Part shown: piece after piece, positions 3,612-55,427 of the stretch
Numbering within the stretch: position 1 is the first letter of the stretch
How the letters are laid out: every line of letters starts with the position of its first letter
From: Psammoneis japonica
Taxonomy: Eukaryota
DNA length: 64,000 nt
NCBI GenBank assembly: GCA_008632985.1
Contig: QPGO01000012.1
Location: forward strand, 124,001-188,000
Direction: 5' to 3'
The notes under the pieces: model-generated
Told to the model about the DNA's origin: nothing
Databases searched by the model: none
Seen by the model: only the letters and a program-made list of their open reading frames with translations
Position numbers and translations under genes: made by a program

Positions 3612-3812
3612 CACGATACTTAACGACCCCTGAATCACGGATGATTCTGCTAAACAGAGTTCGCGGAAGCGCATGTTGCAACTTTTGTGAGTGCACTTGC
3701 CGACATCCTACACACGACACTCAATGACCCCTGAATCACGGATGATTCTGCTGAACAGAGTTTGCGGAAGCACATGTTGTAACTTTTGTGAGTGCACTTG
3801 CCGACATCCCAC
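3612..3812. repeat. Two-copy ~100 bp tandem repeat
   Basis: acacgatacttaacgacccctgaatcacgg...gccgacatccta vs acacgacactcaatgacccctgaatcacgg...gccgacatccca. Confidence 0.9.
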
Positions 3813-3941
3813 ATCACAGTCGAGAGCACAGGGCAAGTTGCGGCTCACATTCTTTTGACAATCATGGCACTCATAATTCACAGCTCCAAAAATGACATTG
3901 CTCACGGCTGCTGCTTCTGCTCCATGACAGATGCGCTCTGT

Positions 3942-6900
3942 TGTTGAACAGATGAGTCAATGGTGGCAAAGGGGAATCTTGCAAAGCTTCCTCCGCTCTC
4001 GCTGCACTCGCCCTGGCTGCTTGTGCAGCTGTGGTTTGCCCACGAAGGTTGTTTGACACAAACTCCAGTTGCTTTAACAGACAGTTGTTGCAGATGCTTC
4101 TCAGTGCCATTGCCAACAGTTGATGCACCAGATGATTCACTCCAAAGAGTGAGAGCGTTGTTGCGAGAACGGAGAGATCGACAACAAGACAGGTGCAGTC
4201 ATCGAATCTTCCACGTCAGGAGCAAAACATCTTTCTTCTTCAAATCATTCATTTTGGGTCCTTTGGTCCCCGTGTTTCACTTGTTCCAACACACTCCTGC
4301 CGCTCTCACCAATTTTGCATGATTGATCTTCAGCCACGACGCATGTGAGAGCAGGTCCTCATGGAATGACATTCGCGTCAGTTCCATTGGGGACACTTGT
4401 GCTCTCCACACTTGCATCAAACATGTTTGCGCACCACCAACTCATTTGGTCTTCACTCATGAAGTCAAGCATGCCATTGGATGTGTTGGCAATGCCTTGA
4501 ACACACTCCACAAATTTCTCAACATGTCCGCGTCCAATTCTCTCGAGAGTGGGATCTCGCTGATTTCCTGACCTTGTTCACTGTAATTTGTCAATCTCTT
4601 CCTGATCTAACTGTGGACATCAGGTGGTTCCAGCACATGAAAACACATCCTGTGTGCTGGCCATGCTTGGCCTCATCGATCACTTCCCAGTTCATTTCTT
4701 GTCTGAAGAATTGTGCCAACTTGAGTGTGTCAAACATGATTCCGTTTCTGTCCATGACCAGGGAGCATGGATCACAGTTGTCTTCACTGTGGTCACCACT
4801 GGGGTGCATGAAGGGTCCACATGCCAGATTCATGCTCAGACCATGCAAAGGCAGGCCTTTCGATGATGATCTGTCCAGCTGATCAAAGTCCTCTTGATCA
4901 AGTGCCAGCTCATTGTCGTTCTGCACTTTGGGTTTTCTCAACCAGTGAGCACGCATGCAATCAAATGTTTCAATTCTGCTGGCAACACAGTTCCAGCCAG
5001 CAAACTTGTGCAGTGTGCGCTGCACTGCTCTTCCACCGCATCTCTTGCAACTTTGTTTGCATGTCGTCATGTGTCGAGAACATTGGTGTTGCAGCAGACA
5101 CACAGTCTCGCGTGCTTGAGGACCATTGCTTGTGTGGTTCGCATGCTGATTCCATCAGCTCACATTGATGCTTCCATGATCTCATCCATGCCTCTCTGCA
5201 ATCCACGCTTCTCATTTCCTTGTGCAACTGCACATGATCCAACACATCCCAAGTCAACATCGGATCCATCGGAAGCACACCAGGTTCATGTTCCCTTCTG
5301 GTCCATGCACACCACAGTCCAGGTTTCTTGCCTTGCTAAATGCATGGTCAGCGTGACAGTGTGGCGTTGCATCTCATTGCCCTCCCCACAGTTCTGGCTC
5401 AAGTCACCATCCCTGATGAAATTGTCCTTTTCTTCATCAGTGATCTTGCAGACCCGCACCACCTCAAGGAAGCACCTTGATGGCCACTGGCTCACCATGA
5501 CTGAGTTCAAATTAATCTGATTGCACTTGGTTGGGTTCGACTCATCAAAAAGGTGTTCAACACCGGCGGCTCCGTCACCATCCATTGCTGTTTGTTGTGT
5601 GCTTGATGCACTTGCATCGCTTTCGGTGAAGATCACACAATCGTCATTCTCTAGGTTGCAGGGTTCTCTCACCCACATGCATCAGAATTCTCATCTGATG
5701 TCACAAATGCAGGAGGTCTGTCCTGCTGTCATTGGGACTTGGCAACCCATGATGGCTTGTTTAAATTTTTGACACTTCTCACCTTGCAAAGGCTCAGTCA
5801 TAAAATCCCCAATCACAGCATTGGCAGGGCAGCACTCTGCAGTTATGTTGCCCTTCTTGGCTTGGTCACATGCAAAGAAGCATCATGTGTTGAGTGCTCT
5901 TGAATGTTTGCCCGTGCTCCGATGACCATTTGTCTCCAACAAGATTGCACTCTTGTTGTCCTGACACAGGATGTTCTTGTCGATGGGGCATCCTTGGTGC
6001 TCCAAATGCAGCTTGGTCCAAAGGATCATGGTTGTTGCATTGTTGACGCCGACCAGTTCAGCTTCCATGTTGCTTCTGGTGTTGAGCTTCTGTCTCTTTG
6101 ACATGGCTTGAACAGCTCCTTTGCCCATTGTCATTGCTGCTCCGGCGTGGCTCTTGAAATCTGGGTGTGCCACCACAAACGATGCACCCATGCACCACTT
6201 TATAACTTGAAGATCTTTGGCAGTCAGTGTTGCCACTTCATCTCTTGTCTGATTCAGATGCTTGAGACAACAGACTGGCTTCAGCCAATCTTTGTCAGTT
6301 GGTTCTCTGGGTCTTGTGCACAGTGCAGACATTGCAGGGTGCACATCCATGCGGCCTCTCTTGGATGCAAATGGTCCTTTGGCCACCCATGTGTGGAACA
6401 TCTGAGCTTTCTCCTTTGGCAGTCTTGTTCCACCCACTTTGAACAGATTCTCTCCTGCTGGAGTCATTGCAAAATCTGCACTCTCAATCTTTTCTGGGAA
6501 ATTGTCAATCATCAATCCAATGCATTTCCTCATGTCAATCTTCAGCTTTCCTTTGTTGCTGAAGTCCAGGATCATTCCAAGGCAATCATGCTTTAAACCT
6601 CTTGTTGCCATGACCTTGCCATGACTCCTGTGCTTTTTGTTCAACCACTTGAGAAACTTGTTGTTGACCTCAGGGTTGATGTGGCTTTACAAAAGGTCAT
6701 CCACATGAAATTGCACTGTGTGCTGCTTTCCGTCAATGGTTTGGTTTGCAATGCATGGGTCATGTGGGTTGAACTCGAACCCAACCCTCTCCAAGTCCTT
6801 GCGGAACTTCTTGTGCCACAGCAGAGCTGCAACTGACATGCTGCAAATGGCTCTGATGACTTGGACATGAAGGACTCTCTTTCCTTTTTCTAGGACCACA

Positions 6901-8852
6901 TGTGGTCCATGCAGGTTTGGATCAATGTTCACTGACATGTCACAAGCAACCCTGCAATCTTCATCATTGTCCGGTCTTTGCCTTCCTTCGGCTCCGGAAC
7001 TTTGGTCTGCATGAATGCATTTGGGATGTCCGTGCTCATCACATCACATGCTTCATCTGCATCTGTTGCCACAGTCATCAGGATTCCCTCCAATGATGCT
7101 GTGGGACTGGCTGACTCATCCTTGTCCAGCAAACTCTCTTGGTGGTTTTTGGTTGCACACCATTCTTCCTTTGATTCGACCATCTCTCTTCTCCGTTGGG
7201 AACATCAAGGTTGTCATTGCCTTTGCCCTTTCATTCTGAGTCATGTCTTTGACTGAAACTGGTGCAAAACACACTCTGTCGTGCAGCTGCTTCATTTCTT
7301 TCTCTGAGGCATCATGCCCTCTCTGGCCAAGTGCCTTGAGGCCCTCATGCAGCAGGTGCTGTTGAGCCAATGAGATTTCTTTTCCTGCTCATGGTTGGTC
7401 ATTGCATTTGCACATGAAAAATGCTGTCACCAACCCTGCTTTGCAGTTGTGTTCCACATCGTCCCCTGGATTGGGGCTTGCATTTGTTCGTAAATGGTGG
7501 CAGTGCCTGAGCTTCTTCAGCTCTTTCTTTTCTTGTTCCATTGCTGCCACTCCAGCAAAGTGAACTTTCTCAGTTCTCATGTCTTCATTCTTGGATTCTT
7601 TGTCCTGTGATGTTGTGTTGTAACTTCACCCTGATCTGGTCATTTGACCTTCTATTTCCATCGCTTCTTTCATTTCTTCTGCAATTTCTTTCATTTCTTG
7701 TCCAACATTGCATCTCCCAGGCCTTCTCTGGTTGTGTCACATTGATTCTTGAACCTCGCCAGACAGTCATCAAGTGACTCATGTTCTTGCTGTCTGACTT
7801 CAAGTGTGTTCTTCATTGCTCTTGTCAACATGTGAAATGGGTGACGACCTCTCCTTGAGTTGCATGTCAGGGATTGAATCAGCTTCAGCAGCTCAATCGG
7901 ATTGTCCCTCATGCCCTCAAAACTTGGGTCAGCCTTGACCCTCTGTCTCATCTGCCTTGTGCAGCAATCATCAAGAATCAATGCAAATGCCTTGCTCTTG
8001 TTCTCATTTAACTCTTCAATCTTTGAGCAGTGATCTGACAATTCCACCCTGCATGCACATTCAAATTCTTTGTCTTCTCATTCCTTCTTGGCATTGTTTC
8101 CCATTGAGACTTGTGGTTTTGGTGTCTCAGCTGCAAAGTCCTTGCATTTCATGTCTTCCAGTGATCGTGCTGGGTGCACTCCTTGATTGCATTCCTTCTG
8201 AATGTGATGCACAACCCTCACCTTGACTTCTTCAAATGCAGCATTGTGAGAGTTGCCACTCATTGATGAAGGATGGAACTTCATCTCATGTTTGTGGTTC
8301 CTGTTGCTGTGCACCTTCTTTCTTGAATTGGAAGACTTGCAACTCTTGTTGCCGTTGTCTCAACCATCACATCGGTTTTCATCCTTCTTGTTTGGATTGT
8401 CATTGGATCCTCTGCCACTCATTGTGCAGGCTGCCAAATGTCTTGTTGACTGTGGACTTGCAATGAGCTTTCATAAATTCGCTTGTGACTCTTTAGAGTG
8501 AATGTTGAACCAACGAGTTAATGGCAGCAAACGGGAATCTTGTGAAGCTTCCTCCGCTCTCATTGTGCTTGCCCTGGCTGCTTGTGTGGCCATGGTTTGC
8601 CTGTGAAGGTTGTTTGACACAAACTTCGATTGCGTTGACAGACAGTTGTTGTGGATGCTTCTCAGCACCATTGCCAATGGTTGACACACCAGATGATTCA
8701 CTCTAAAGAGTGAGAACATTGTTGCAAGAACGGAGAGATTGATGACGAGATGGGTGCAGTCATTGAATCTTCCACATCAGGAGCAAAACATCTTTCTTCT
8801 TCAAATCATTCATTCTGGGTCCTTTAATCCCCATGTTTCACTTGTTCCAACA
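3942..8852 (-). mobile_element. Ty1/Copia (CoDi-like) LTR retrotransposon 1, decayed; gag and RT-RNaseH remnants, protease/integrase apparently deleted
   Basis: 350 bp LTRs TGTTGAAC...TTCCAACA at 3942-4291 and 8503-8852; 5 bp TSD TCTGT; RT/RNH motifs (TDIPNAFMQT, FHVDDL, SKRQKLNTRSNMEAELVG, QDNKSAILLE). Confidence 0.93.
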
Positions 8853-10305
8853 TCTGTTGCAAAAAACAGGGGGCCAATCATGAAGGTTGCCAAGGCCACA
8901 AGGCTTCTTGTTGCCACCTGTCCATCCACATTGCAAGGTGCATGGATGGACACAGGAGATTGAAGGGCATTTTCCTCAAAGGACTCAGAACAAACATTTC
9001 TTGAGCAACATGCATGCATCAGCTGCAGAGGCTGCCCAGACATTGTTGGGAGCAGAGAGGCCACTCATGCAAGGAGAACAATGGCAGTGCTGCATGGTTT
9101 GGAAGCACATCAAAGTCATCCAGAATCCAAGGCTGGCAATGATGGCAGATCCACAGCATCAGGTAAAAGTCAATTGAGATGTCAATTTGTTGATTGACCT
9201 CACAAATGAGCTCCAGCAGCATGCCCTTGCGCAACTGGCATGAGTTTTTTGTGCAGTCGCATGCTCAAAAAAAGTGAGAAAGAGTTGGTGATGCAGTGTT
9301 GGCCCGAGTCCACACTGGCAAAAGATGGCATTGAGTGCCTGGAGGGTGGACATGAGACTGCAGGATGTCTGGCTTGGTGACTGCAGAGGACATGTCAGCA
9401 TCCAGTCAAATGCCACTCATTGGATGTTCCCAGAAAGCCACGGCTTGTCTGCTGCAAGAAGGCCAACTTCACATCAAAAGTCGGTGGCCATTTTAACCCA
9501 ACAACAGGGCACAGGCTGAAAAGTGGCATTTGAAGCATTGCATGCTCAGCTCTTGAAACAGCACAACAGCCCTGATGAGGGGCTGATGGATGCGCAAGTG
9601 TTTGTGAGGGGTGCTCCGATGCACACGTCAAAGCGATGCATCAAAGCACGTCACACAGGGGAGGCACGAGGAGCTGCCCTGCCAAGTTGGAGCTCCCTGC
9701 CATCAGAGCAATTGGAGATTGGAGGGTTTTGGCACCCATGGACACATGACAGAGACAAATGCTGCATTGTTGCTGAGGATGAGGACATTGTAACATGGGA
9801 GGACTGTTGTTTGCTCGCGAGTCACGGATGCACACTGTTGCGTTCGTGCTGGCCCTGCAAAATTCATGTTAACCCGGAGGTAAACTTTGATTATTAATCT
9901 TTATTCGACACTGTAGGTAATCAAATATACAACATTCCCTCCGACAACCCTGCAATAAAAACTGGCAACAGCACCATGCACCATGACGCATTTACTTACT
10001 GGTTTTACGAGTGCCCGTCGCCGCTGACTCATTCGTTGAGAAACGAGAATGCAATCATGCATTCTCGTAGAAGACATCAAAAGAGTTGGAAAGATCAACA
10101 ACGAGCAGAAACGATTTGAAATTTCCACGTGTCCCAGTCGTGAATCTCGCCGCGTGTCGTTTTTTGGAAAACGAAGTCTTTCGAAGATACAATTTGATTC
10201 TCTGTACTATACACTGAAAGGTCACCAGATGGTCTCATAATTTTCTCAACAGAGAAAACTGCATCAGAATTCGAGCAAGAGAAAACACGTAGAAGCACGT
10301 AAAGA

Positions 10306-15529: not shown

Positions 15530-15548
15530 CTACAAGTTGTGAATCTTC

Positions 15549-17440
15549 TCTAGTCTATAGAATATACATACGCAGCTCCCGTCTTGTTGCCCTTTGCATG
15601 TGACCCACTTTCGCCGACCCCAACTACGCGTCCATTTGCGGACAAGGACACGGACCATCCAAATAAACCGTCTGGAGTATTACCAACCATATATTCACCA
15701 ACCTGACTCCATTCTGCGATGTCATCATCAAATTGATAGATCCCAACCCCCCAGCTCCTGGTATGTCAGTCACATTCAGCCAACGCCTTGCTAGAGCCAT
15801 TACATTTCCATCTGCATTCAATGACACCGCATTCCCAAAGCGATCTCCTGGCTGATCAGTCACGAGTGTTTGGCCTCGTTGCGTCCATTTCGACGTTGCG
15901 CGATCATGCTCATAAACATACACTCCGCCTTTTATTATTTTGGTGGTCCCTCCTCCTAATTCACCAACTGCCATGACTTAACCACTGTCGTCGAGAGAAA
16001 CAGAGTACCCATACCGACCATCCTTCACTCGTCCATTGATTGGTTCACCCAAGAGATCCCTGAGTGATGTTGCCGGATCGTATTCGTATACAGAGACTTG
16101 GCCTGACACCTGTTTACCAGCATTCAGAGCTGAAGCTCCAACAATCTTGCCTGAGCTACTCAAGGAGACCGAATATCCAAGGCGATCTTTTGCAACTTGA
16201 CCATTTATTGTCTGTCCAAGTTGTGTCCATATCGACTCATCACGGTTGTATTGAAACATTCGAACAGAACCTGTACCTTTGCCATTGCTTGTCTTTTCAA
16301 ATCGAGTTCCGACGGCAACAATGTCTCCGACATCCGAGAGAGACACGGAGTAACCAAAGCCACTTGAGGAATCTCTCTCAAGGTCGCTTCCCAACTGGAT
16401 CCACCGATCGGTGAAAGTATCATATTCATAAACTCGAACATGTCCCGAATCACTATTTTGCGGTGCCCCCACAGCGAGTATCATCCCGTTATAGCTTAAT
16501 GACACAGTGTGACCAAACTGATCTTGACTGGATTCTCCAACTAAATCTTGACCCATGGGCAACCACTCCCTTGTGGCTTCATTCCAACGAAACACGGAAA
16601 CGTAGCCTGGTGCTTCGTCAGAAGCCGCCTGGCTGCCTCCAACGGCTATGACACTCGCATCTCGTGACAGTGAGATAGAAGTGCCGAATAATCCAAACGG
16701 TCCCTTTCCGTTCACAACTGGTCCAAGCTGTTGCCATGGACGGTTCTTTGGTAGAGGAACATATGGAGCAGGTGGTGATGGCGTCGGAGAAACCGTACTA
16801 GCCGGATTCTGATTGTTGCCGCTGTCGCTATTGGACAACATGTCAACTGCAATAACAATTGCACCAACTATTAAGAGTACAATTCCGAATGCAATCCAAA
16901 GTCTGCAGCGGCTTTTCGTTTTTCTATCCTCATCATTTGCAACCTCCACATGAGCGTAAGGCATTCGTACAGACTGTCGAAGCCGGACATTCTCCTCCCG
17001 TAGATGAGCAACTAGCTCGTCATCCGATGGCTGTGCTGGTTGTGCTTCCAGAAGATCGACGTTTCTATCGGCACGGGAATGGAGTGGCGGCGTGGAATCC
17101 GAATGAACAGTTACCAACTCATGAGAGAAAACGGAGATGTCATCGTTTCCGCGCTGGAATCGAACCTCTCCTTCACGACTCACAGCGAAAGCACCAGCAA
17201 CCCGTGTATCACCCTGATCCTCTTCCTCCTCTTCATTTTCGATGACGATATGTTCAGTACGAACGTGGCTTTCTCCTTCTTCTTCTTGTTTGATTGTAAA
17301 CGAAAAGTCTGATGACATTTGTCGACGAAGAATCTCTTCCACTGTTTCTTCAACCTCTTCTTCTTTTTCTTCGACATGTTGCAACAGTGGATGTGTACGG
17401 CGTTTATTCATCGCACGAATCTTCCTCTTCGTAGTTGACT
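15549..17440 (-). pseudogene. FG-GAP propeller paralogue A2; premature stop at ~15978, frameshift at ~15750, 5' end deleted
   Basis: Colinear with 11247-13140; GGC TTA has become GGT TAA. Confidence 0.8.
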
Positions 17441-18149
17441 TCGAGAGACCTGGTTATGTTCGAGTATTTGAATACAGTACCCTCACGGAAGATTGGGTTC
17501 AACTTGGCACTGACATTGCCGGAGAAGATGATGGTGATGGCTTCGGGCAGTCCGTTTCTCTGTCAGATGCTGGTGACATTCTCGCGGTAGGAGCCACTGG
17601 GGTTGACACGAGCAATGGAAACGATTCTGGATCGGTTCGATTGTTTCAATACGACCGAGTCACATCATCATGGATCCAGCTTGGACAGACTCTGATTGGC
17701 AAATCTGATGAGGATGCGTTTGGCTGGTCTGTCTCCCTGAACAGAGCGGGTACGGTGGTCGGAATCGGGGCGTACTTGAGACGCGATAGCCAAGTATCTG
17801 TCTATGAATTCAATGCTGCATTGAAGGCGTGGGAACCAGTGGGTGACCCTCTTTCCGGAAGAGATGACTTTGGGATCTCTGTTTCTCTAGATGACACTGG
17901 TTTAATCATAGCAGTAGAAGCAAGTCGAAGGGATGAGAGGGTGTTGGTTTATGAATACGACCGTTCGACAATGAAGTGGACGCAGCGCGGTCAACCAATT
18001 GTGACGAATCAGCTTGACGATCAATTCGGTAAGTCGGTGTCATTGAGCGGAAGAGGAAATGTCGTGGCAATTGGAAGCGAGAGACACAATATTAACGGCT
18101 TTAAAAACGTGGGTCAAGTTGGAATCTTTCAATACGACACAAGCACACG

Positions 18150-21100
18150 TGTTTAAATACTCAAAAGCAGATCAGTAGCGGTAGCTAGTGATGACTAGTA
18201 AGTATTGGGGCGATCAAATAGGCGTTACAATAACAGCTGTAGTAAAATTGTGAGGATGTGAGAGGCTCCTCGTCTCTCATTTAAGACTGATGTTTATGAG
18301 TCATTTTTGGGACAGTGAGTCATAATGTAATGACGTATGAAGTATGATATCTTCACACTCCCTCTCATTTTGATCTCATGCATCTCGAAAATGAAGGTTT
18401 GACGCACTTTGCGCGCGAATCCACTTTTAAAGTATTCCAAACACCTACCAACCCATTACTTTCGGTCGTAACCAAAGCAGAACGTCCAGATTGACCGCTT
18501 TAGTTAGAAAATCGGCCAATTGTGCAGTAGTGTCGATAGAGTGGATTGAGATCTCCTTTCGACTGACACAGTCACGGAAATGGTGCAGCTTCACGTTGAG
18601 GTGCTTGGCACGCGGTCTGTACTTATGTACCTTCGCCATTTCCAGCGCGCCGCTGTTGTCCTCAAAAACTTTGCAGTGCATCTTCGCCGTCGTCGAGTTG
18701 ATTGGACACCCTCGCGACTTCAGTTCCTTCAACATTTCCATCATAGGGATGGCCTCTCGCAAGGCATGCGACAATCCGGTGTGTTCACTTTCGGCACTGG
18801 ACAACGCTGTTTCAGTCTGCAGCTGAGACTTCCAAAGGATCGGACAACCAGCGCAAGTGATGAGATGCCCGTGACGGGATCTTGCGGTGTCTCTGTCGCT
18901 CGCAGCTTCCTTTCGATCCCAATTGCCACTGAAGTCGGCGTCTACGTACACCTCCAAATCCTTTTTGGAATCTGGTTTCAGAATTGCACCTTTGTCTCTC
19001 GTGGCGTGCAGATGTCTGCCTGGCCACCGCATGGCCTCGCCATGTTCTACCTTCGGGTCCGCAGTGAATCTCGCGCACTGGTGCGCAATGCACGCGATGT
19101 CGCTTCGGGTGCATTTCTCCAAGCAATTCAGCTTGCCGATGATCGACCTGCAATTGAAGGAATTGTCAAATGGTCTTGAGTCTGAATGCCTGGATGGGAG
19201 CTTGGACGAAGCTGCAGGTGTGTCTTTTCCGATGACACTCGGTTTGTCAAGTCGCAAGTCTTTCAGAATCTGGTCGATCAGGTGGGGTTGTGTCAGGTGT
19301 GTCATTCCATCCAACTTTCTGGTGATGTTCATGCCAAGGAAATCTTGAATGTCGCCTTCCACCGTGACATCTAACTTTGCTTGCTTGATTTCCTCTATGA
19401 TCTTGTTGATCTCGGATTCATCAGGGCCTGCGAGCAAAGAATCATCCGCGCAGAGAAGGCAAATCGTTTTTCCATGATAAAACACACACTCGTCGACCTT
19501 GGATTGCTCGAAACCCAGCTTGTTGACCAACTTGTCCACGAGATGCTTGCTCCAGACTCGCCCTGCCTGCTTCTGCCCGTGTGCACTCCGATGCAAGCGC
19601 AGAACATGATCCTTGGTGTTGGTGCCTTCGAGCTCAAATCCGGGCGGAATCTCCATGTAGAGATCCTTTTCGACCAGTGCTTGAGGAAAAGCGAGGACAC
19701 AATCCAGCTGCTTTGAATGCCACCCATGCACTCCCACTGAGGCAAGCAGCAGCTGCATTGAATTTCGTGATGCAACCGGCGCATGTGTCTCATCGTAGTC
19801 TTTTCCTTTTCTCATCCTCGAGCCGTCAATGTCAAGTCGCGCTTTCCACTTCTTCACCTTTCGGGTGTGCATGTCTCGCTTTCGCTTCATTTGCCACACT
19901 GCAGGTGGTGCTTTTCTGTCTTGTTTCACCTGTGATCTTGGAATGATGGAGCAGCCTTCCATTTTCCATTTGATCCTTCACCTCTTTTTGCATCGCCTTG
20001 AGGAACTCCTTGCGGTCCGGTTCTTTCATGGCTTGGTGCATGCACATGGTGTCAGGATCTGCTGATGCTTTGCAGGCAAGGAGGGGATTTGCGACTTCTT
20101 CTTGGAGGGCTTGCGAGTCTCGAGGATGCAGTGCGGCCAAGCACAGCAGTTCTCCTTCGACGCCTCCTTCAGTGTCTTTCTTGATCTCAGTCTCCATGGA
20201 CTCAATCAATCTGCTGACCGGTTGGCTCTTGCGCCCTGATCGTGTCACTTTTGGTTCAGCATGACCGTCTCGTGCTTGATCAGACTCGCCCTCATGTGGA
20301 GGTGCTTCTAGAGATTCAGTCCTTTTGGACGCGTTGGCCTTGTTGTCATTGGGCTCTCGGCGCATCTCTCGTTTGGACACCGATTGGCTGTCGGTTGCTG
20401 CAGTGTCGCCATCTTGTGGCCGTGTTAGTTGGTCAGCCCAACGAATGGTTCTTCGTTTCTTGCCTTGCTCCACTCCCTCTGAAGCTCGTGCGCGCTTCTT
20501 CTTGGGACGATCCGGAGCACTTGTGGGAGCCGTTTTGGTCTCGCCACTCTTCTTGGTTCCTTTTGTCTCCCTCTGAGCAACGAACCCGGCTTTTATTTGC
20601 CACAGAGAATCGCAAGTGTCTTGCTTCAGCGCATGGAATGATGGATCAAATTTTGCGTGGAACTGTGGACTTGCCAGTGCCGACTCTCGGTCGAGTGCCA
20701 GGGCCACGTTCTTGCCATGTTGTGGGCTTCGGCCTGAGTGTGTTCCAACCCTTGATCTGTCTTTCCATTTGTGGTGCGGCAGACCTGATTGCAATGCGGA
20801 GTCCAATGCGCACACTGGGCAACCAAATGGTTTCCAGTGCTTTGGATTGGTGGCAACTTTCGTGTTGGAAAACAGCTGGAGTGGGCTTGATCGGTCTTTG
20901 TGTTGGAGGTTGGGTGCATGATTGATGGCATCACAGGCCATGCGAATCGCGCAGGGTCATAAATTTGCCGCAATGCACTTCTTCCAGCGGCTGTTGGCAT
21001 GGATCAACATTGTTCGGGCGAGCTCTTGGAGCTCTCGGATCCGTCGCTCCGCCGTGCCATTTTGGTGATGAGCGCCTACGGCAGCGAACGTCAGTTGTTG

Positions 21101-23769
21101 CCCTTGTCTCCTGCACGCATGCACCCAGTCGTTGGCCTTGAATGTTCCGTTGTCAGCATGGTGAGCCTGTCACACCACAACTCTTTGCATGCAACTCGAA
21201 AGCTTGTTTTCCCTCCAACGTTTCAGCTGCCGTTGCTGTCTTTTGCAGATGAACGCAACCCAATTTGGAGCACTGGTCAACATGGACTGTGGCGTGCTTG
21301 CACCGTTTTGTGGTCAAGAAGCCCGTCATTTGTGCGATCAGACCCGGTGTCGGAGACACCAATTGATCCACTGAGACAATTTGGCCTGGTTTTGTTGGAG
21401 CTTCTATCTCGGCATTCGTCGTTCCGTGCCTTGTCGCGCCATTTTCTCTTGGTCGCCTTTGTGCACAGGCATGCCGAGCAAGCAGGTGCGTTGCACTTTG
21501 CGAGCCGTCTTGGCAGAATGCCCATCTTTGCCATCCATTGCAACTTTGTGAAGCTGATGTGCCCAAATTGTTGGCGGCACTTGAGGAGCAGCGCCGCATC
21601 CGTGTCTGGCTGTCTGTCTTCTTCATCTTCCACCACTCGTGGCGGTGGAGCAGTCGGTGCTCCCTCTGAGTTTGGGACGCTGTTCGTCACTCCCTCTGAG
21701 CTGCCACTGCTTGTTGGCCCATTTGCATCAAACGTTGCTCCCAGTGGGTGGACGCGCTGATCGGCAGCCAACCCTGACTCTTGCGCCACCTCCTGGGGTT
21801 CAGGTTGCCATTCCTTGGCAATGCTTTTTGCATCGCATTGGACATCCGTCTCTTCCTCGTCCTCGTCATCACTGATGACTGCTGCATCTTGTGTGAGGAC
21901 AGGATCGTCTGCTTCTTTCGCTGGATCGATGTCCGCGTCGGCGCAAAATGCTTCGAACTTCTGATGACCCGGTGCCAAGCGGAAGGTGGCTACGTTCGTA
22001 GTCTCGCTCAACGGCACAGTCAGTCGATGCTTTCGTTGGTTCCAGAACAGTGTGACCTCTTTCGAGTTTGTCTCTGATCCAGTTCCTTCGATCGGCTTGT
22101 TGTCTCTCAGTGCCTTTGCCCAGTGTTGGGGACTCAGCAGGCGGACCTTGCCATCAGGTGTGTGGAATGAGTTGGGGATTACGAACTTGTGTGTCTTTCC
22201 CTCATCGTCGCTCCATCTCCATGGCAGGGTGCCAACTTTCACACCTGTGGTTCGAGAGCCACCGAATCCCTTGATGGTTCTTCTTGTGTCTCTCAGCTCG
22301 CCAATGAAGTCTTCTGTTTGGTCGGATGTGCAACCTGCACATCTGTCATCCACTCCGACTGGCCCAGAATCGGTGTCAAACGTGACGGTGTGCTCTTTTA
22401 TGTGTTTCCCTTTGGCTTGCATGGCCACCATGGCTGGCGCCATAATCGAGCCCCATGTTCGCCTCTTCTGTCTGGGTTTCACCTTTGTTGCGGCACGTTG
22501 GATCTTGATTGTGTTTCTTCAACCACGTGGGCTTCCCGTCTTTCTGAGCACCTTGAGACGCATCGTGGTCTTTTCCCTTGTTTCCCGTCTTCTTGTGGGA
22601 TTTCTTGCTGAGGGCCTCCACTTGAGCTTGGAGAGCCAAGATCTTTTCTTCAGATGCACTGGGGGCATTCCATGGCGATTTCTGAAGCAGGTTCTTGCAC
22701 TTGTTGCCCGCAAGGTTCACAAGTTGCGACGCCGACATGTCCTCGCCCTCTTCACACTGTTCTTGCTTACGCTCGATGCACTTGACAAAAACTTTGTCGG
22801 AAGCAGCCAGGTGCCCCTTGAAGAGGTTCGCAAGTGGGTCCTCAGTGGTTTCGCCTCGTGACTTAAGGGCGGCAAGCAACAATGCCACGCACTGGTTGAA
22901 CTTCAAGATGTCGTGACCGATCGTTGGGAGACAGAGGTCGAGTTGACTCAATTTCGTTCGGATCGCACTCGTCGTGGCATTCGCATCGAGGTGGGATTCC
23001 CTGACAATGATCTTGAGAAGGAGATTTCCGGACATGCGATCTCCGATCTTGCACTCTGATTCCCAGATCCTCACTTTGTCCTTTCCGGCTTTCGACATGG
23101 AGCTCATCAGGCAGCGACACGCTAGATGGGTGTCTTGCGCTGCGCGACTCTCATTGCCGATGTAGGATTCTTCAAAGCCCCGGATCCTCTCCAGGTCTGT
23201 CTGACCACAGTCGGTCAACAGATTGGACCTCTCGGATTCCAGGATGTCTTCGTGGTCTTCTGGGATCATGAATGTTCCGTTCTCATCATTCCACCCAAAC
23301 TCTCTGGCTCTGTCTTCCAAGTTCTTGAGGAACTGGCACAGGTCTCCTGGTTCACAATCGAATGATTCCTCATCCAGCGGCTTGGCAGCTTGCTCAAAAA
23401 GCTTGCAACCCGCACTCGAACGACAATCGATGACCGTGGTGAACGCTTGTGCCGGAGCCAATGCAAGTGGGACATCTTCGGGAACATCTCCTGGCTCCGG
23501 TCCAGAAACGGACAAAGCCTCTGAAGAGGCATCAGACATGTCACTTAGCGCAGAGGAAGCGTGTTTAAATGCTCAAAAGCAGATCAGCAGCGGTGGCCAG
23601 TGATGACCAGCAAGCATTGGGGCGATCAAACAGGCATTGCAACAACAGCTGTAGTGAAATTGTGAGGATGTGAGAGGCTCCTCGTCTCTCATTTAAGACT
23701 GATGTTTGTGAGTCATTTTTGGGACAGTGAGTCACAATGTGATGACGCACGAAGCATGACATCTTCACA
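18150..23769 (-). mobile_element. Ty1/Copia (CoDi-like) LTR retrotransposon 2, full gag-PR-IN-RT-RNH order, frameshifted and hypermutated
   Basis: 208 bp LTRs TG...CA at 18150-18357 and 23562-23769; TSD CACACG; PPT GAGAGGGAG at 18358-18366; gag ATG at 23539; integrase (VSVDQLVSPTPG) and RT/RNH (VYVDADFSG, FEDNSGALEMA, QLADFLTK) motifs. Confidence 0.96.
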
Positions 23770-23781
23770 CACACGGGAATG

Positions 23782-26700
23782 GGGTGTCCCAGCACGCGCG
23801 CTGGTTGGTTGGTTGGTTGGTTGGCTCGTGGAGGGAATCCTGAGGGAATCCTGAGGGAATTCTGCCAAATTTGTCTCGCTCGCGGGAGGATGCCTCGCAC
23901 AGTGTGGTTCGTAACTCGGACTTTTCAGTCTTACGGACCAGCCGCAGCCGCCACATGAAAACACACCAAAAAAACCAACCGCAGGGGCTACAGTAAAAAT
24001 CAGCACTCACATTCAGTCCCGGATTTCTCGTTTTTGTCGCTCCAGAAAATGATAAAAAAAAGAGCTGCGAGGTTTTGCCCAGCACCAACTGCAACATTTA
24101 TTGTGTGCACGCGTCCTGCTTCGACCTGCTTGACGAATGTAAATGTTCAAAACAAACATTTGTGTGAGAGAAAGCGAACTATGTCAGATTTGTCGTAGTG
24201 CCACCAACAAGCTGCCGGCACATGACGATCTGCCACCAAACTCACAAAATTTCTGGAAGGCGCAACGGTGGTGACTGAGGCCCGTTTTGATCAACCATGA
24301 GTCGTCAAGCCGCTGTCGGCGTCACTGCCAGGCGTCAAGCCACCGTTGCCCCGCCAGGTGGAGGAGACGAAGAACGATCCGCACGCCAACGTCTCGCAAG
24401 AAGCAACTCGTCTTCTTCTGTCAGCAGCATCGAGAGTTTGCTAAATGCGCCAAGAGTGTTCAACTCACCTCCACCATTCACTGACACACGTTGGTCCGAC
24501 GTTGACACGGATGATGAGTCTGAAGAAGGGCACAATCCTCCACCCGTTGGGGATCCGGGTGTTTGCAGCAGCGAAGACAGAGAGCGCGACAACGAGGCCC
24601 TCAAATGTCGTTGCCCAATCGCTGGGCGATTTGCCACCAGAAAGCCCGTCAAATGGCTGGGTCAAGTGTGCGAAGAGCAACAGCTTGAGCAGCATTTTCA
24701 GGATTGTCGCACGCGAAGGGGGTTGGGTGATTTTGTAATGAATCCGCTCACTGGTGGACAAGTGCTTTCTTCGATCCATCCCATTCGCCATGACGACACG
24801 GATCTGTGGAAAAACCAAGCCAAGATTGCCAAAAAAGGTCACATGTTGCGCAAGTGTCGTCGTGAAAAATGGCAACGCGAACAAACCGAGGGAGCACGTT
24901 TGCAAGCGGCGGATGCGGCTTCAACTGCAACGCTGACAGACGGCGCATCTGACACCACTGCTGCCGATGCCGCTGCTGCCGGCACTCCTCATCGCAACGG
25001 CACTCGAGGCATGCCCCGACTCGGTGATTTTCTTTCAAATGATGCAGGAAAGCGGGCTTTGACTGCCACACTTAGAGAAGCTAAGATGACCGGCTGGGAC
25101 CAATCGCTGGGGTACGGTCGACGCACTGCTTGGCTCACCGTCCGTCATCCTGTTTGGATCAACCGAGCACAACGTGGCATTTTGTCTCAGTGAGCAATGT
25201 GTTGAATGCATTGTCATTTCCGTTGCACCATTGCCGTGTACAATGTCTAATGTGTTGTTTGTTTTTATTTTTGCATGATGCAGATTTCACCCATTCAGCA
25301 TTGCTCTCTTGCGTCGCAAGCTGAGTGCTGCTGAAGCTTGAATCAAGGCGGATTTCCACCAACAGGGAGCGCACAGCACCGATGAAAGTGGCGCCATGGG
25401 GGAAAGTGAGTTTCCCCAATGTGCAACACTTTTTTGTGAGCATTTCTCCTGGGTGGAGAATCGTCCTGACGGGCCAGCAGCAACAAGAGCGCGTCAGGAT
25501 GCCAGGCGCCGTGTTGAAAGGAGTGCCATTGGTGCCATGGCGCCTCTTGGTGGGAGTTATCAGACTCTCCGCACCGAGCACTCTCGTTCCAATCTTGGTC
25601 CAAACCAAGATGTTGCAAGCAGGAGCACATCATCGGATCAAACCGAGGGGACGGAAAATGTTGTTGCTGCCACCACTCCTGTGGATGCTGGTGCTGGTGC
25701 TGCGAGAGCGAGTGGTCAGCGACGTGTCATTCGTCGTGAGAGTGTGCCATTGCCCATGGGCGTTGAGAATGCCATGATGGCATCTACACAAAATCTTCAG
25801 ATGGGATTTGTGGAACTAGCAAGAGCGATTTCAAGCCCCCGTCAGCCACCTCCTCGCTCCATTTCTGACATCCGCACCGAATTTGTTCGGACGCGTCGTG
25901 CTCTGAGGGAGGCAGAGGACGACAATGATGAAAGGTCTGTTGGCTTTCTCAACAGGATGTTGGACTCCCTTGACAGGGAAATGACGCAGTCTTTTTCTGG
26001 ATCTGTCGGCAGTGAGCGCGGTGAAAATGCCGATGCCGAAAATGTGGAGCAGTTTCGTTCGAGTCGCATGTGGTCGATTTGTCACTGTTGTGTGCACTGG
26101 TTCTGGAGGATTGAATCCTCCAGTGTTCATCATGCCTTTGTAAGCCGAGTCCATTCACAGCAATTGGTCTCAGATAAAGAATCGATTGTCCGGTTTCTCA
26201 CTGGTGTTCTTTCAGGAGGCGGTCGGTTGCGTGTTGAGGTCGTCACGCATTCACGCCATCCCGCAAGGTGGCTTGTGGTTGGTCCGAAATGGAGCTGAAG
26301 CACCGCAAACATAAAGAAAAGAACTTGGTCAATGACATCATTACTTGAAAGGATGTCATCGCTACCCCAGAAAACCAAAGCAATAACAGCTGCAATTCGG
26401 GCAATCAATTCCTGCGTCGTCGTAAAGTTAAAATAAAAGAGACGTCTCAACAGCAGAACGGTGAGGACATCACGTTGAGACAGGGCATCATGCCGATGCC
26501 TCCAGTTCGTACGCCGACGTATATTGCGATGAATGATGTGATCGTCAGCATCTTCTCGGTGTCGACGCCGATAGCGCCTTTGCCGAGGCATACGGTACGT
26601 AAGAGGTAACGAAAACAACGCCGTTACGAATGTTTGATATGTGATTCTTTTTTTTGTGACTATCGAGGTACTGCATTAAAATTATTCATATATATTATAC

Positions 26701-27010
26701 CTTGAATCATGTAATGAGAAAAGGTTGTTATGATACTTCTTAAAATGTCGATGTTATATATTGTAATATATATGCCTTTGTGACCTTGACATATTCTGTG
26801 TACAAGACCGGATCGTATACCACGGGACTTAACGGGACTGAGATGTTTTGACAAATCGGAAGCTCGAAACCACCGAGGGAAGATCTTACTTTGCACGGGC
26901 ATCGATCAGATGGTCACACAGCTTCACAAACTCACGAACAGAAACGGAATCTTCGCGCGCGCCGCGCCCAACCAACCAACCAACCAACCAGCGCGCGTGC
27001 TAGGACACCC
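23782..27010. mobile_element. TIR DNA transposon, PIF/Harbinger-ISL2EU-like, internally deleted; accessory ORF on + (24297-~26050, probable intron ~25190-25320) and truncated transposase-like ORF on - (26591-~26050)
   Basis: ~42 bp TIRs GGGTGTCC[C/T]AGCACGCGCGC followed by (TGGT)n; 2 bp TSD TG; two convergent ORFs; NRTIDSLSE..C.EWTRLTK resembles a Harbinger-type transposase N-terminus. Confidence 0.75.
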
Positions 27011-27371
27011 TGGAATCAGGTGGGCAATCGCATAAATGGCGAGGCTTATAATGATCGATTTGGATCTGCTGTGTCCTTGTCGGCGAACGGAACTGTCGTA
27101 GGAGTTGGTGCACCTCGAAGCAACAGAAACGGCTGGTCGTCAGGATCTGCCTATGTTTTCACTTTAAGCTAGCTACGGCGGATCGCTTTTGGTCGTAATT
27201 CCTCTTCCTCATAGCCTTATCAAATGCGGGTTTCCCTTTTACTCTCTTCCCAGTTTTTCGGGTCATATCGAGGCTATCGTAGACATACACAGTATTTTTT
27301 GAATTGCTATTACCTTTTTCGACTCGGGGTCTACTTATTTTTCTCCGTTGCTTCAATCACGCCCACCAAAC

Positions 27372-48500: not shown

Positions 48501-48740
48501 CCATAGTTGAGTGGACCTTGAGAGAACATCCCAGCCACAGTTTGAGGACTCACCAAACAGGCAGAAGGATGGAACAAAGTTCCAGCTTCAATGCAGAGGT
48601 TGTGCATGCTGGACGCTCTTTTTTTTTTAGTTGCTCAATCAGGATCTTTGTGGCACCCAAAAGCTCTTCAATGTGTCCGATCTTTCCGGTCCATCGGAGG
48701 ATGAATCTTTGTCCGAATTAGACAACTGAGCACAAAAAAA
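42530..48740. mobile_element. Nest of decayed TA-depleted transposons, including a Harbinger/DDE_Tnp_4-like transposase remnant (+, ~45750-46260)
   Basis: EVALCILTGETVWINGPFKPGIWNNLVIF...VEADDGCMGE (ancestral ADDGY.GE); ~6.2 kb almost devoid of TA and CG. Confidence 0.75.
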
Positions 48741-53693: not shown

Positions 53694-54029
53694 CGTGGCT
53701 ACGATGCGCGACGTTCCAAGCCACAATAGAGTATCTGTTATCACTGTTGAGGAAAATGAACACATGCATATGGATGATACAGTACTGTATCTCCCATCCC
53801 GATACTCAAGAAGTCGAATTCTCCGACACGATAAGCGAAGCTTTGTGGAAGCGATTGTCACGAATGCTCGTTCAATGATCACTTGTTTCTATACGATGTC
53901 TAAACCAAGCTTTAGTGAAGAATCGGGATTGTCCGCTCTTCATTCGTAGTTACAGTAGTAGTCTAGTCTACCTAGAACCGAAGCGACTACTGCATCTACG
54001 TTCTGGTACTGGAATTCACACACAGGTCA

Positions 54030-54930
54030 GCAATCTACACCACTGCCGACATCCACATGCTGTCATGAGGTGTTCTATCCAGCACCTGCACCCGTTCAGC
54101 ACCAAGCTCTGAATCAAGCTGACGAATCATCAAACCTGGCGTCTTCCTGTTAGAACACGCACCAAGACATGCACTGATGTTGTGAGAAGAGGGACAGATG
54201 GCATTGAACCTGGATCTGGCTGCCTGGACTGCCCGCCACCTCAGCAGAAGATAGAGCCCCTCTGGCTCTCACGAGAAGAGACAAGATCCACGGATCGTCT
54301 CATTCAGGTGAGGAAACCCAACAGCAAACAAGAGATTGCTCTGCAGCATGTTTCTCACTGTCTTTGTCACCCCAGCTGTCACAACAGCACAGTGGCCGGT
54401 GACAGTGCAGGAGCTGCAATGCAGCATGATGTTTCCTCTTGAGAAAGCATTTTTGTCTGTTCTTCATTGTCCGTGTCCAGGGACAGCAAGCATGGCACAA
54501 GAGCTGATTGAAAAATTGTGGCAGCTGTGCATCTTCAAAGAACAGCTCATCAGCCATGTCATCCAGCACAAAGCTCCAGGGCCAAGGGAAAAAACCAGAC
54601 CACAGACATGGCTGCTGTGGTGCCCCAGCAACCAGATGGCCAAGTCCGTTAGAGTCAACTGCAGATGACTGTCACACTGGCAATTGCACAGTCACTTGCA
54701 CTCATTGGCATGAGCCCACTGCCCAGCAGACTGCAAGTTTGCCTGGAAGACACAAGAGGCATCACGGCAAGGATTGCCACCAAGACTGTTCACTCAGCCA
54801 TTGATGCGCAATGGCAAGCTGACAACTGCCAAAATTTTGCTTGTGCCAATGCCACCATGACATGTTGTGTCAAACTGGTGGCTGGGCTCCAACCCGAAAA
54901 ATTACCTGACCAATTGGGCACAGCTGTGTC
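54030..54930. mobile_element. Short TA-depleted relic, unclassified
   Basis: Composition only. Confidence 0.4.
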
Positions 54931-55427
54931 AACGAGATACTTGTGGATCATAACACATCTCATTGGCTAAGCAATTCTTCGTGGTTGACAAATGAACGTC
55001 GGCGACGGGTTCACGTGTTGTTTTCTCGTGCTTTGGCGACATGAGCCAGGTTAGTCGAGTTAATCCCCGTACGAATCCTGCGGAGGTACTTCGAGCCACA
55101 AGCCTGTTCCTTGGTTTTCACCAGACAAATTAATAGCTCTGAGCTACAAGCGGAAACGGTAAGCTTGTAGAAACAACCGGCTTTTCCTTATTTTCACCAG
55201 ACAAGATAATCGAATCTTAGATATTTTATGGAACTGTTGGCAGAACGCGGTGCTTTCTACAGTGTAACTTGTCACCGAAAACTAGACCATCGGCGTCAAA
55301 CACTGTCCTGCTAACAACAATAGTGACGGCGCGTGTTGAACATTTCACCCACGAAAGTCATAAAATCTATCTAAAGTTCATGCAATTGTTCTACCGAGAC
55401 CACTAATAGCAACGGTTTCGGTGTCAT

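Follow-up and report, generated by a model that had tools for sequence, protein, structure and literature searches.

A composite transposable element (TE) island of 8.9 kb, which interrupts a host FG-GAP gene in the 64-kb window (the whole stretch of DNA analysed), has very probably been through a real hypermutation that is specific for TA, occurred after integration and was limited to one domain. The explanation that accounts best for the data as a whole, and which we consider probable, is a domain-targeted TA hypermutation tied to silencing and brought about most likely by adenine deamination; that the agent itself was a nucleic-acid deaminase acting on adenine is a more tentative proposal, for which the chances are somewhat below even. 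The island consists of a dead Ty1/copia LTR retrotransposon on the minus strand (18148-23770) and a DNA transposon with terminal inverted repeats (TIRs) located 6 bp away, and the alignment of the host gene with its paralogue shows that the whole of 18148-27010 is inserted material (Table 1).

Table 1. Coordinates of the features discussed in the text (o/e, observed/expected ratio; TSD, target-site duplication)
Feature	Coordinates	Strand	Evidence or remarks
Older TA/CG-depleted block	3800..9800		TA o/e 0.06, CG o/e 0.28
Degenerate LTR retrotransposon	3942-8852		LTRs 3942-4291 and 8503-8852, TSD TCTGT
Host FG-GAP_2 repeat gene, 5' part	17242..18147	+	Pfam FG-GAP_2, paralogue alignment, X2 depth
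TSD ACACG, left copy, 5 bp	18143..18147		read directly; same pentamer at 23771-23775
Left LTR (3' LTR in element orientation), not hypermutated	18148..18358	-	20 TA in 211 nt
RT-RNase H open frame, copia element	18445..19962	-	Pfam RVT_2, E=9.4e-38; catalytic box LLCADD
Hypermutated core of the composite TE island	~18650..26300		TA o/e 0.10-0.16, CG o/e 0.78-0.90 (100-bp profile, composition)
Broken integrase/linker/pre-integrase region, several frames	19835..22518	-	homologue tblastn and Tyr counts
Presumed gag open frame, 387 aa, 2 Tyr	22376..23539	-	named gag from position only
Right LTR (5' LTR in element orientation), hypermutated	23560..23770	-	3 TA left, 17 now CA/TG
TSD ACACG, right copy	23771..23775		read directly
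TIR DNA transposon, 3.2 kb	23782..27010		43-nt TIRs 23782-23824 and 26968-27010, 98% complementary
Host FG-GAP gene, 3' part (WNQVGNRINGE...FTLS, stop)	27011..27172	+	in frame with paralogue 13613-15529
TA/CG-depleted block, single-copy by k-mer depth	29600..31200		TA o/e 0.03, CG o/e 0.22
TA/CG-depleted block, multi-copy by depth	35600..37900		TA o/e 0.06, CG o/e 0.29
TA/CG-depleted block	42600..48600		TA o/e 0.06, CG o/e 0.14
TA/CG-depleted block	54000..55000		TA o/e 0.08, CG o/e 0.25
TA/CG-depleted block	60800..62200		TA o/e 0.08, CG o/e 0.46

The two LTRs of the copia element were recovered as a single direct repeat pair (18148-18358 and 23560-23770) with 91% identity over 211 nt, slightly longer than the 208 bp of the original prediction, whose count of differences was reproduced exactly by an ungapped comparison. 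The LTRs differ at 19 of 211 positions, by transitions without exception; 17 of these pair a TA of the left LTR with CA (11) or TG (6) in the right one, and the remaining two are located at CpG (CG versus CA at 18224, TG versus CG at 18338). With 20 TA in the left LTR and three in the right one, 17 of 20 TA sites have been lost, and CG occurs six times in either LTR. Differences affect 17 of the 40 nucleotides that are part of a TA, as opposed to 2 of 171 outside (Fisher p=2.5e-12), where only one of 89 A/T nucleotides differs.

The direction of this change, judged from the encoded proteins, is from TA to CA/TG, as had been proposed, because tyrosines conserved among homologues became histidine or cysteine at 14 of 17 columns. 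Compared with 60 homologues of at most 69% identity (which, together with the LTR and TIR asymmetry, provide the polarity in place of a direct ancestor of the interior), the reverse transcriptase copy reads Tyr at three of these columns, His at seven and Cys at seven; it deviates at 38 of 284 conserved columns, including these 14 and, in addition, three Leu to Pro (codon CCA) and two Ile to Thr (codon ACA) replacements. The Tyr content of TE frames is 0-1.0% versus 2.3-4.2% in five host genes, and the two long frames of the broken integrase region contain no Tyr at all. This region was located by the N-terminal parts of homologues (tblastn, 21169-19844) and includes a gag_pre-integrs match below the family cut-off (E=0.0013); a Pfam search of the presumed gag frame found no family. 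Five of the six peptides originally quoted in support of lost tyrosines (LDCVLAF, HGQKQAG, LLCADD, FNCRSIIGKLNCLEK, ESEHTGLSHAL) are present in the minus-strand translation, whereas KRCKHATVHVDQCS is a reading by eye of the minus strand around 21240-21290. In public protein data, the copia protein P0086 retains one of 19 conserved Tyr, and 24 of the 26 Tyr of its relative L002 are Cys (13) or His (11) in P0086; the unmutated relatives L002-L004 show a TA o/e of 0.65-0.80. Four further proteins among 148 cluster representatives (P0265, P0282, P0261, P0249) carry the same signature, although the Tyr-depleted proteins from other data sets have neither DNA nor an organism attached to them and may stem from the same species.

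One LTR is mutated and the other spared, and changes to His and Cys are equally frequent, which indicates that duplex DNA was mutated after integration, in agreement with the original prediction. The depleted zone starts about 500 bp inside the copia element, runs across parts of both elements and stops about 700 bp before the right end of the DNA transposon, so that the left ~2.5 kb of this transposon, which has no RNA stage, are likewise TA-depleted and the right ~700 bp are not; the single mismatch between its TIRs reads CCAG inside the depleted domain and CTAG outside. No transposase family was found for this transposon, and contigs of read set X1 that join 24244 to 26376 represent internally deleted copies elsewhere. 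The spared margins (~500-700 bp), the left of which includes the whole left LTR, adjoin transcribed gene fragments: read set X2, which we take from its behaviour to be an RNA run, has a depth of 0 over 18334-27004 yet covers both fragments of the host gene, the 5' part of which has a normal TA content. A core that extends across both elements and spares the island edges indicates a process that worked on a domain of duplex DNA already integrated. Thus, the predicted hypermutation of transposons stands, but what it targets is the composite island's core, as a chromatin-like domain, rather than the element itself; sparing of one of two identical LTRs likewise makes the mutated unit look like a chromatin domain rather than a repeat, although gene conversion by an unmutated copy could also have spared the left LTR. 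Both elements were in the chromosome before the island core lost most of its TA.

Six further silent blocks of the window carry this signature, with a TA o/e of 0.03-0.08. TA occurs 4.8 times per kb in the blocks versus 40.1 times elsewhere (ratio 0.12), with ratios of 1.43 for CA/TG and 0.49 for CG. The older block at 3800-9800 contains the degenerate retrotransposon at 3942-8852 (weak reverse transcriptase similarity at 5745-6866, minus strand), whose LTRs differ at 50 of 350 positions, including 12 adjacent CA/TG doubles, 12 CG versus CA/TG and four TA versus CA/TG. In the older blocks the TA signature is joined by ordinary CpG to TpG/CpA decay. Decay of 5-methylcytosine (5mC) affects the same blocks and yields the same products (CG o/e 0.14-0.46 in older blocks), but it cannot remove TA, of which about 85-90% are gone from the young island core, where only ~10-22% of CpG have been lost. 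Conversely, two copia relatives, L008 and L009, combine a CG o/e of 0.2-0.39 with a TA o/e of 0.95-0.97, and CpG decay therefore does not entail TA loss. This supports the earlier view that 5mC deamination alone is not sufficient.

The sensitivity of TA depends on its flanks: it is highest for RTAY, intermediate for mixed sites, which have one favourable half, and lowest for YTAR. Relative to host DNA and relatives, which are proxies and not ancestors, TA survival was 0.000, 0.093 and 0.235, respectively, in old blocks compared with unmutated relatives (chi-square p=1e-11) and 0.033, 0.20 and 0.18 in the young island (p=0.003). This preference amounts to only two- to four-fold and is weak among the P0086 Tyr codons (preceding Y: Cys 7, His 5). 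TA-site events comprise 17 + 14 + 24 = 55 transitions, no single transversion and one double TA to CG change; either strand is changed about equally often at individual sites, and strand-coordinated runs are absent. The sequence alone is compatible with damage to the A or to the paired T.

In the most likely chemistry, an enzyme would hydrolytically deaminate the adenine of 5'-TAY-3' in silent DNA, whichever strand it lies on, and so produce hypoxanthine. Hypoxanthine would be read as G and replication would then fix the change, each TA becoming CA or TG through one transition. TadA/ADAT2 enzymes convert A to I at an adenine after U/T and before C (anticodon loop U33-A34-C35) and have given rise to adenine base editors; this context resembles the TAY preference observed here, although the natural substrate of TadA is tRNA. 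Natural enzymes that deaminate the adenine of chromosomal DNA are not known to us. Stramenopile-restricted deaminase-SAM-Tudor proteins, described in one study as of unknown function (PMC3239186), are only a lead to a candidate agent.

A less probable explanation is that no dedicated mutator exists. The palindrome TpA would then carry, in TEs specifically, a modified base as an epigenetic mark, and TA would be lost through damage incidental to this mark, in parallel with the decay of 5mC at CpG. The mark could be, for example, oxidised thymine, with a dioxygenase of the TET/JBP type producing 5hmU/5fU, or a symmetric N6-methyladenine that is deaminated. 5fU mispairs with G, the palindromic YR dinucleotides TA and CG give the same decay products in the same silent blocks, both strands are changed symmetrically, and since R-T-A on one strand is T-A-Y on the other, a thymine-centred lesion fits the flank data equally well. 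However, TA loss near saturation next to the modest CpG loss of the young island is far faster than ordinary decay of a mark, and L008 and L009 show CpG decay in the absence of TA loss. Oxidised thymine lesions and their repair also yield transversions, of which none was seen in 55 events. A literature search on 5-hydroxymethyluracil in connection with diatoms and TEs listed no paper that describes this base in TEs of diatoms.

It is unlikely, and in our view distinctly so, that the signature is a sequencing or assembly artefact in which modified TpA/CpG of TEs is miscalled as CA/TG by a long-read basecaller and the real DNA reads TA. The signature is limited to silent, probably methylated DNA, and X1, whose platform is not on record, may be the sample from which the window was assembled. 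Yet X1 contigs (k-mer depth ~60) match single-copy sequence without substitutions, among them one of depth 56 that matches the depleted block at 30314-31398. Between the window and X1 contigs there are 430 differences in all; among the 40 listed, 39 are located in the TE island and the 40th (31845) outside the blocks; nine pair TA in the other copy with CA/TG in the window, four (31845 included) show the converse, and eight form four CA/TG doubles. The mutations arose independently in each copy, and the same family site reads TA, CA or TG in the same context, a pattern that a context-driven miscall would not create. The 12 CA versus TG sites of the older LTRs, frameshifts in copies, indels between copies at 19956, 21168 and 21416, and Tyr-to-His/Cys copia frames in several other public assemblies also argue against an artefact.

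Two mechanisms had originally been offered, of which deamination-type chemistry fits the data. The other, resynthesis of error-prone patches at WA motifs by a pol-eta-like polymerase, set off when deaminated 5mC of methylated TEs is repaired, is most improbable. It would tie the TA loss of the blocks to their CpG methylation, and pol eta prefers TA over AA and A to G changes; but transversions make up a large part of the errors of this polymerase at A, and the mechanism is disfavoured because there were none against 55 transitions and because not one of the LTR's 31 AA/TT dinucleotides is altered, versus 17 of 20 TA. In the blocks, AA frequency is 0.99 of normal. A partly similar case is E. 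coli, where very-short-patch repair acting on T:G mismatches depletes CTAG: a system that counters 5mC deamination incidentally drives a TA-containing word to CA/TG. There, however, the effect is weak, genome-wide and bound to Dcm sites, whereas here TA loss is confined to silent islands and CTAG belongs to the contexts that resist it most (0.19).

That RNA was edited (A-to-I, ADAR-like), or cDNA while it was being made by reverse transcription, and that retrotransposition carried the changes into the genome has a negligible probability. APOBEC3 (G to A, cDNA) and ADAR (A to G, RNA) likewise leave clustered transitions with a neighbour preference and kill retroelements, ADAR acts on A with a 5' U, and reverse transcription could in principle create LTR asymmetry. 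Their footprints, however, are strand-specific and precede integration. Here, T to C and A to G occur on one strand (11 + 6 in the LTR; seven Tyr to His and seven to Cys), a DNA transposon whose TIRs differ by TA versus CA is equally depleted, the depleted zone ignores element boundaries and other copies show independent outcomes; editing is thus contradicted by the two-strand changes and the depleted DNA transposon. A reverse polarity, with a RIP-like CpA to TpA mutation of the left LTR and an ancestral TA-poor state, has just as little to recommend it: the LTR comparison alone gives no direction, but the Tyr columns of the 60 homologues contradict it, a functional reverse transcriptase cannot lack the Y of YxDD, and unmutated relatives have a TA o/e of 0.6-0.8, rising to ~1.0-1.1 in some 500-bp windows, similar to the left LTR.

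The system that domain-targeted TA hypermutation resembles most in its effect is RIP of ascomycete fungi, and a literature search for TA to CA/TG hypermutation of transposons found no published report. Both processes act on integrated duplex transposon DNA, produce only transitions at one dinucleotide on both strands, come near saturation in sharp compositional blocks and inactivate coding sequence. Fungal RIP changes CpA to TpA (C:G to T:A) and lowers GC, in contrast to the TpA to CpA/TpG (A:T to G:C) change here, which raises it; moreover, one of two identical LTRs is spared, and the host is probably a diatom. Diatoms have RID-related DNMT4 genes of unknown function (PMC9998398); a cytosine enzyme of this type does not explain an A:T change. 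Whereas RIP creates stop codons, the loss of TA removes TAA/TAG stops and makes none, and its damage is done through lost Tyr, Ile and Leu codons, including the catalytic Y of YxDD, and through destruction of TA-rich promoter sequence. Hypermutation aimed at a chromatin domain may work as transposon silencing, or arise as its by-product, and would represent a functional mirror image of fungal RIP.

The genes flanking the transposon island encode FG-GAP_2 repeat proteins (Pfam), and because the nearest Atlas cluster of these proteins is mainly from Bacillariophyta (score 0.91), the host is probably a diatom. The paralogous gene at 13613-15529 matches two separate segments, 17448-18147 and 27011-27176, and its reading frame is restored once the inserts are taken out; 18148-27010 is therefore a single composite 8.9-kb transposon island within a host gene. 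Both halves of the split gene are still covered by X2, a run listed as 'DNA?' which yet shows GT..AG skips and thus behaves like RNA. The split gene is a member of a cluster of at least four FG-GAP_2/Kelch-like paralogues with 65-82% DNA identity (11247-18147 and 27011-27172). Elsewhere in the window, a gene around 32152-33725 contains two short GT..AG introns, 32751-32854 (102 nt) and 32896-32982 (85 nt), supported by X2 contigs. An intronless Glyco_transf_90 gene (52425-53693, forward strand, 422 aa) has animal protein O-glucosyltransferase 1 (POGLUT1/Rumi) as its best named relatives (53-61% identity), with no closer named diatom protein among the 120 matches listed; it may represent a lateral acquisition or a database gap.

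Transposons of the island and members of the surrounding gene cluster
Feature	Position	Strand	Remarks
FG-GAP_2/Kelch-like paralogue	11247-13181	-	cluster member
FG-GAP_2/Kelch-like paralogue	13613-15529	+	cluster member
FG-GAP_2/Kelch-like paralogue	15978-17411	-	cluster member
FG-GAP_2/Kelch-like paralogue	17242-18147	+	cluster member, split by island (rest 27011-27172)
copia LTR retrotransposon	18148-23770	-	211-nt LTRs; 5-bp target-site duplication ACACG on either side
TIR DNA transposon	23782-27010		43-nt terminal inverted repeats, 98% complementary; starts 6 bases right of copia

The retrotransposon can be assigned to Ty1/copia by its LTRs, its target-site duplication and an RVT_2 reverse transcriptase (PF07727, E=9.4e-38, 130.6 bits, cut-off 31.6). 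Similarity to the integrase side is located upstream of the reverse transcriptase, which would be the Ty1/copia order. This upstream region (21169-19844) aligns with N-terminal parts of homologues in a broken frame; its Pfam match to gag_pre-integrs (E=0.0013) is under the cut-off of that family, and rve gave no Pfam match there. The coding region is broken across at least four frames, the first ATG is located just 20 nt from the 5' LTR, and the closest relatives share at most 69% protein identity, those with a name belonging to the diatoms Fragilaria crotonensis and Attheya. Scanning the 64-kb window for tRNAs and Rfam families gave 0 hits. For the adjacent DNA transposon, a 2-bp TG duplication restores the reading frame of the paralogue and gives weak support for a target-site duplication, while its open frames look low-complexity and matched no Pfam family. 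Contigs of X1, a read set whose platform is not on record, join 24244 to 26376 (also 24248 to 26389 with 12 other letters), and these joins across 24245-26375 show that the genome contains, at other places, MITE-like derivatives of the transposon with internal deletions. The two insertions lie 6-8 bp apart and hit the host gene around the same codon (18143-23781), which suggests that the edge of the earlier element attracted the later one. At its right end, which is spared (26500-26900), the DNA transposon is very rich in TA, with 13 and 12 TA per 100 bp and ATATATATTATA-like runs; this end immediately precedes the 3' gene fragment, which is still expressed, and may serve as its promoter.

A repeat search placed the copia LTRs at 18148-18358 and 23560-23770, with 91% identity. 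In an ungapped comparison they differ at 19 positions, without exception by transitions; at 17 of these the left LTR has TA and the right LTR CA (11) or TG (6), and at the remaining two CpG is involved. Differing nucleotides amount to 17/40 inside TA versus 2/171 elsewhere in the LTR (Fisher p=2.5e-12); a single one of 89 non-TA A/T nucleotides differs, and all 31 AA/TT dinucleotides are intact. Divergence between the LTRs is 9% overall and 1.2% with TA excluded. The original prediction had described precisely these 19 differences and the disappearance of 17 of 20 TA sites from the right LTR, and was accurate on recomputation (20 TA on the left, 3 on the right). It had also claimed that deamination of 5mC alone is insufficient, which holds with 17 of 19 differences at TA and not at CG.

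The direction of the change can be read from the encoded protein. We aligned the first 60 of 120 listed homologues to the reverse transcriptase-RNase H frame and took columns with at least 80% conservation as conserved. Of these 284 columns the copy matches 246 and departs at 38, among them Tyr to His (7), Tyr to Cys (7), Leu to Pro (3, codon CCA) and Ile to Thr (2, codon ACA). Only 3 of 17 conserved Tyr columns thus retain Tyr, and Tyr content is 0-1.0% in the copia frames versus 2.3-4.2% in five host genes. Because Tyr is the sole amino acid whose codons always contain TA, and because the catalytic box of the reverse transcriptase now reads LLCADD, the TA-poor state is derived and the change is TA to CA or TG, in agreement with the predicted direction (His or Cys at 14 of 17 conserved Tyr columns). 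An ancestrally TA-free element is ruled out by the Tyr loss, and GC-biased gene conversion by the change of CG to CA or TG, which runs the wrong way.

LTRs are identical when an element integrates, and the asymmetry between them therefore arose after integration. The depleted zone ignores element boundaries: it begins about 500 bp inside the copia element, sparing the whole left LTR, continues through the right LTR into the DNA transposon, and ends about 700 bp before the right end of the latter. The terminal inverted repeats have a sole mismatch, where the depleted arm reads CCAG and the spared arm CTAG. X2 depth is 0 over 18334-27004 and inside other blocks, and we infer a silent domain with protected margins beside transcribed DNA. 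Gene conversion could in principle account for the spared left LTR. Assembly chimerism is rejected by the matching target-site duplications and by the same spared margin at the far end of the transposon. A DNA transposon passes through no RNA or cDNA stage, and since it is also depleted, editing of RNA or cDNA is excluded; ADAR-type RNA editing fixed by retrotransposition fails likewise, with outcomes symmetric between strands. The LTR asymmetry, the presence of both T to C and A to G, and the inclusion of the DNA transposon support the claim that the process acts on both strands after integration.

Depletion extends over seven sharp-edged blocks, which comprise 24.8 of 64 kb and show TA observed/expected (o/e) ratios of 0.03-0.16 and CA/TG ratios of about 1.4-1.9. 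They contain 4.8 TA per kb versus 40.1 outside, and block/normal ratios are 0.49 for CG, 1.43 for CA/TG and 0.99 for AA. The CG o/e ratio is 0.78-0.90 in the young island, where TA is already depleted, and 0.14-0.46 in the six older blocks; TA loss is therefore far ahead of CpG decay. When 60 open frames from the other blocks and from the DNA transposon were compared with Pfam, no family scored above its curated cut-off, and a search for structural termini in the older blocks gave none that was convincing. Dispersed duplications of normal composition and 84-91% identity border depleted blocks, namely 1324-2005 versus 9871-10536, and 40074-40927 versus 53714-53917 and 55168-55809, the two parts of the latter flanking the 54000-55000 block with their order exchanged. 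A tandem array of about six copies of a 111-bp unit (41483-42153, 85-90% identity, within an open frame at 41358-42293) is located directly left of the depleted block starting near 42600.

Survival of TA depends on the flanking bases. For the figures given here we took as baseline six unmutated relatives from metagenome loci, without L003, which nearly duplicates L002, and without the distant L008 and L009; a separate comparison used host DNA as baseline. RTAY sites survive in the old blocks at 0.000, mixed sites at 0.093 and YTAR sites at 0.235 (p=1e-11), and in the young island at 0.033, 0.20 and 0.18, respectively (p=0.003), which fits two independent half-sites, 5'-TAY-3' on each strand. 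Events at TA comprise 55 transitions (LTR, 17; Tyr columns of the reverse transcriptase, 14; Tyr of the public protein P0086, 24), one double change and no single transversion. No strand-coordinated runs, as expected of a processive single-strand deaminase, were seen among the 24 Tyr fates (13 runs, P=0.58).

The process is thus TA-specific, restricted to transitions, acts per strand, after integration and in limited domains, and is near saturation. Pure A:T to G:C transitions that obey a strict neighbour preference suggest that bases were converted enzymatically and speak against polymerase error. Deamination of adenine to hypoxanthine produces exactly A to G, and tRNA adenosine deaminases act at a U-A-C site, which resembles the T-A-Y context found here. 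We tentatively propose that diatoms, or a lineage thereof, may naturally possess an enzyme system which, at R-T-A-Y palindromes of chromosomal duplex DNA, turns A:T into G:C and which is targeted to silent chromatin as a genome defence. The main alternative, a lesion of paired thymines or a symmetric base mark at TpA, fits the sequence data equally well; we consider it unlikely. Mutagenesis by pol eta at WA motifs, close to the repair at TA that had been suggested originally, fails with AA untouched (0/31 AA/TT altered, AA ratio 0.99) and transversions absent (0/55). As regards candidate agents for the proposed enzyme system, parts of PMC3239186 describe lineage-specific deaminase-fold proteins of unknown function in stramenopiles, including deaminase-SAM-Tudor fusions, and parts of PMC9998398 describe RID-related DNMT4 genes of unknown function in diatoms; both are leads only.

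That the signature is an artefact is highly improbable. With a k-mer depth of about 60 on single-copy DNA, X1 contigs show 0 differences over the host flank and its junction with the left LTR, and 0 substitutions against the depleted block 30314-31398; X1 may be the source sample, its platform being off record, and this agreement is support, not independent proof. Overall, X1 contigs differ from the window at 430 positions, with 81-96 differences per transition type versus 7-12 per transversion type. The set X3 gave no match to the window, from which absence does not follow. Among the 40 listed, 39 fall in the island and one (31845) outside the blocks; nine have TA in the other copy and CA or TG in the window, four show the converse (including 31845), eight form four CA/TG doubles and ten are of CpG type. 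In an older element (LTRs 3942-4291 and 8503-8852, target-site duplication TCTGT), the LTRs differ at 50 of 350 positions: 12 adjacent CA/TG doubles (24 positions), 12 of CG versus CA/TG, 4 of TA versus CA/TG, 7 other transitions and 3 transversions. The hits are independent in each copy.

Public databases contain similar cases. In the list of 120 homologues, 1 of 19 conserved Tyr is left in P0086, 12 are left in P0021 and 13 in P0037, the losses in P0086 and P0021 being mainly to His or Cys. Seven metagenome loci encode relatives of P0086 (73-86% identity) with normal composition and TA o/e of 0.59-0.80; the contig of P0086 itself did not figure among the nine loci obtained. In a comparison taking in three of nine loci, the 26 Tyr of L002 correspond in P0086 to Cys (13), His (11), Arg (1) and Tyr (1), and 55 of 136 amino-acid differences between the two are explicable by one change of TA to CA or TG. 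Among 148 evaluable cluster representatives, Tyr is replaced by His or Cys at 9/13 positions in P0265, 13/19 in P0282, 8/19 in P0261 and 7/19 in P0249. These proteins have no DNA or organism attached and could stem from one species; at the protein level, they hint independently at real mutation.

Fungal RIP, which depends on RID/DIM-2 and operates before meiosis, changes C:G to T:A, mainly CpA to TpA, so that TpA rises; here, as predicted, the reverse of this defining property is found, both in the low TA ratios of the blocks (0.03-0.16) and in the replacement of Tyr by His or Cys (14/17). In its outcome the process resembles RIP, and both cause only transitions on both strands of integrated DNA (here 55, with 0 single transversions). 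RIP targets duplicated sequence as such and all repeat copies. Here the left LTR, itself a repeat, is spared, and depletion extends to a block with single-copy depth; further copies of the family carry mutations as well. The signature does not seem to follow the repeat unit. Decay of methylated CpG is also seen in the silent repeats (CG 0.49 and CA 1.43 in blocks; the 12 CG differences between the older LTRs). In the distant copia relatives L008 (1-1709) and L009 (1-1257), on other metagenome contigs, CG o/e is 0.20 and 0.39 and TA o/e 0.95 and 0.97, which is the ordinary methylation signature without the TA effect; TA loss is thus separable from the CpG decay with which it co-occurs.

To our knowledge, all known hypermutation of mobile DNA (RIP, APOBEC) is cytosine deamination, pushing sequence towards A+T; removal of TA by A:T to G:C conversion would, if true, reach that end by a second chemical route, independent of the first. 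The proposed enzyme system would have an evolutionary origin separate from that of RIP and an opposite chemistry. A full-text search of main articles, few of them from subscription journals, found no report of transposon hypermutation from TA to CA or TG, and the passages reached by term look-ups in four diatom papers (PMC2806351, PMC4504042, bioRxiv 10.1101/2025.10.24.684338, PMC7466962) give no account of it. In such genomes, ages dated by LTR divergence would be greatly overestimated (divergence here 9% overall versus 1.2% outside TA), and dead elements, being TA-free and stop-poor, are annotated as long ORFs; Tyr-less 'proteins' such as P0086 and P0282 are already in public databases. The TA o/e ratio offers a simple annotation track for silent chromatin. 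If our proposal is true, it would imply that an enzyme or base mark of natural origin works on adenine or thymine of duplex DNA, and would bear directly on base editing. The agent would be either a DNA adenine editor that occurs in nature or a symmetric mark on TpA whose deamination follows a pathway of its own. For diatoms, an ecologically major group about whose silencing machinery little is known, the proposal would represent a new layer of genome defence.
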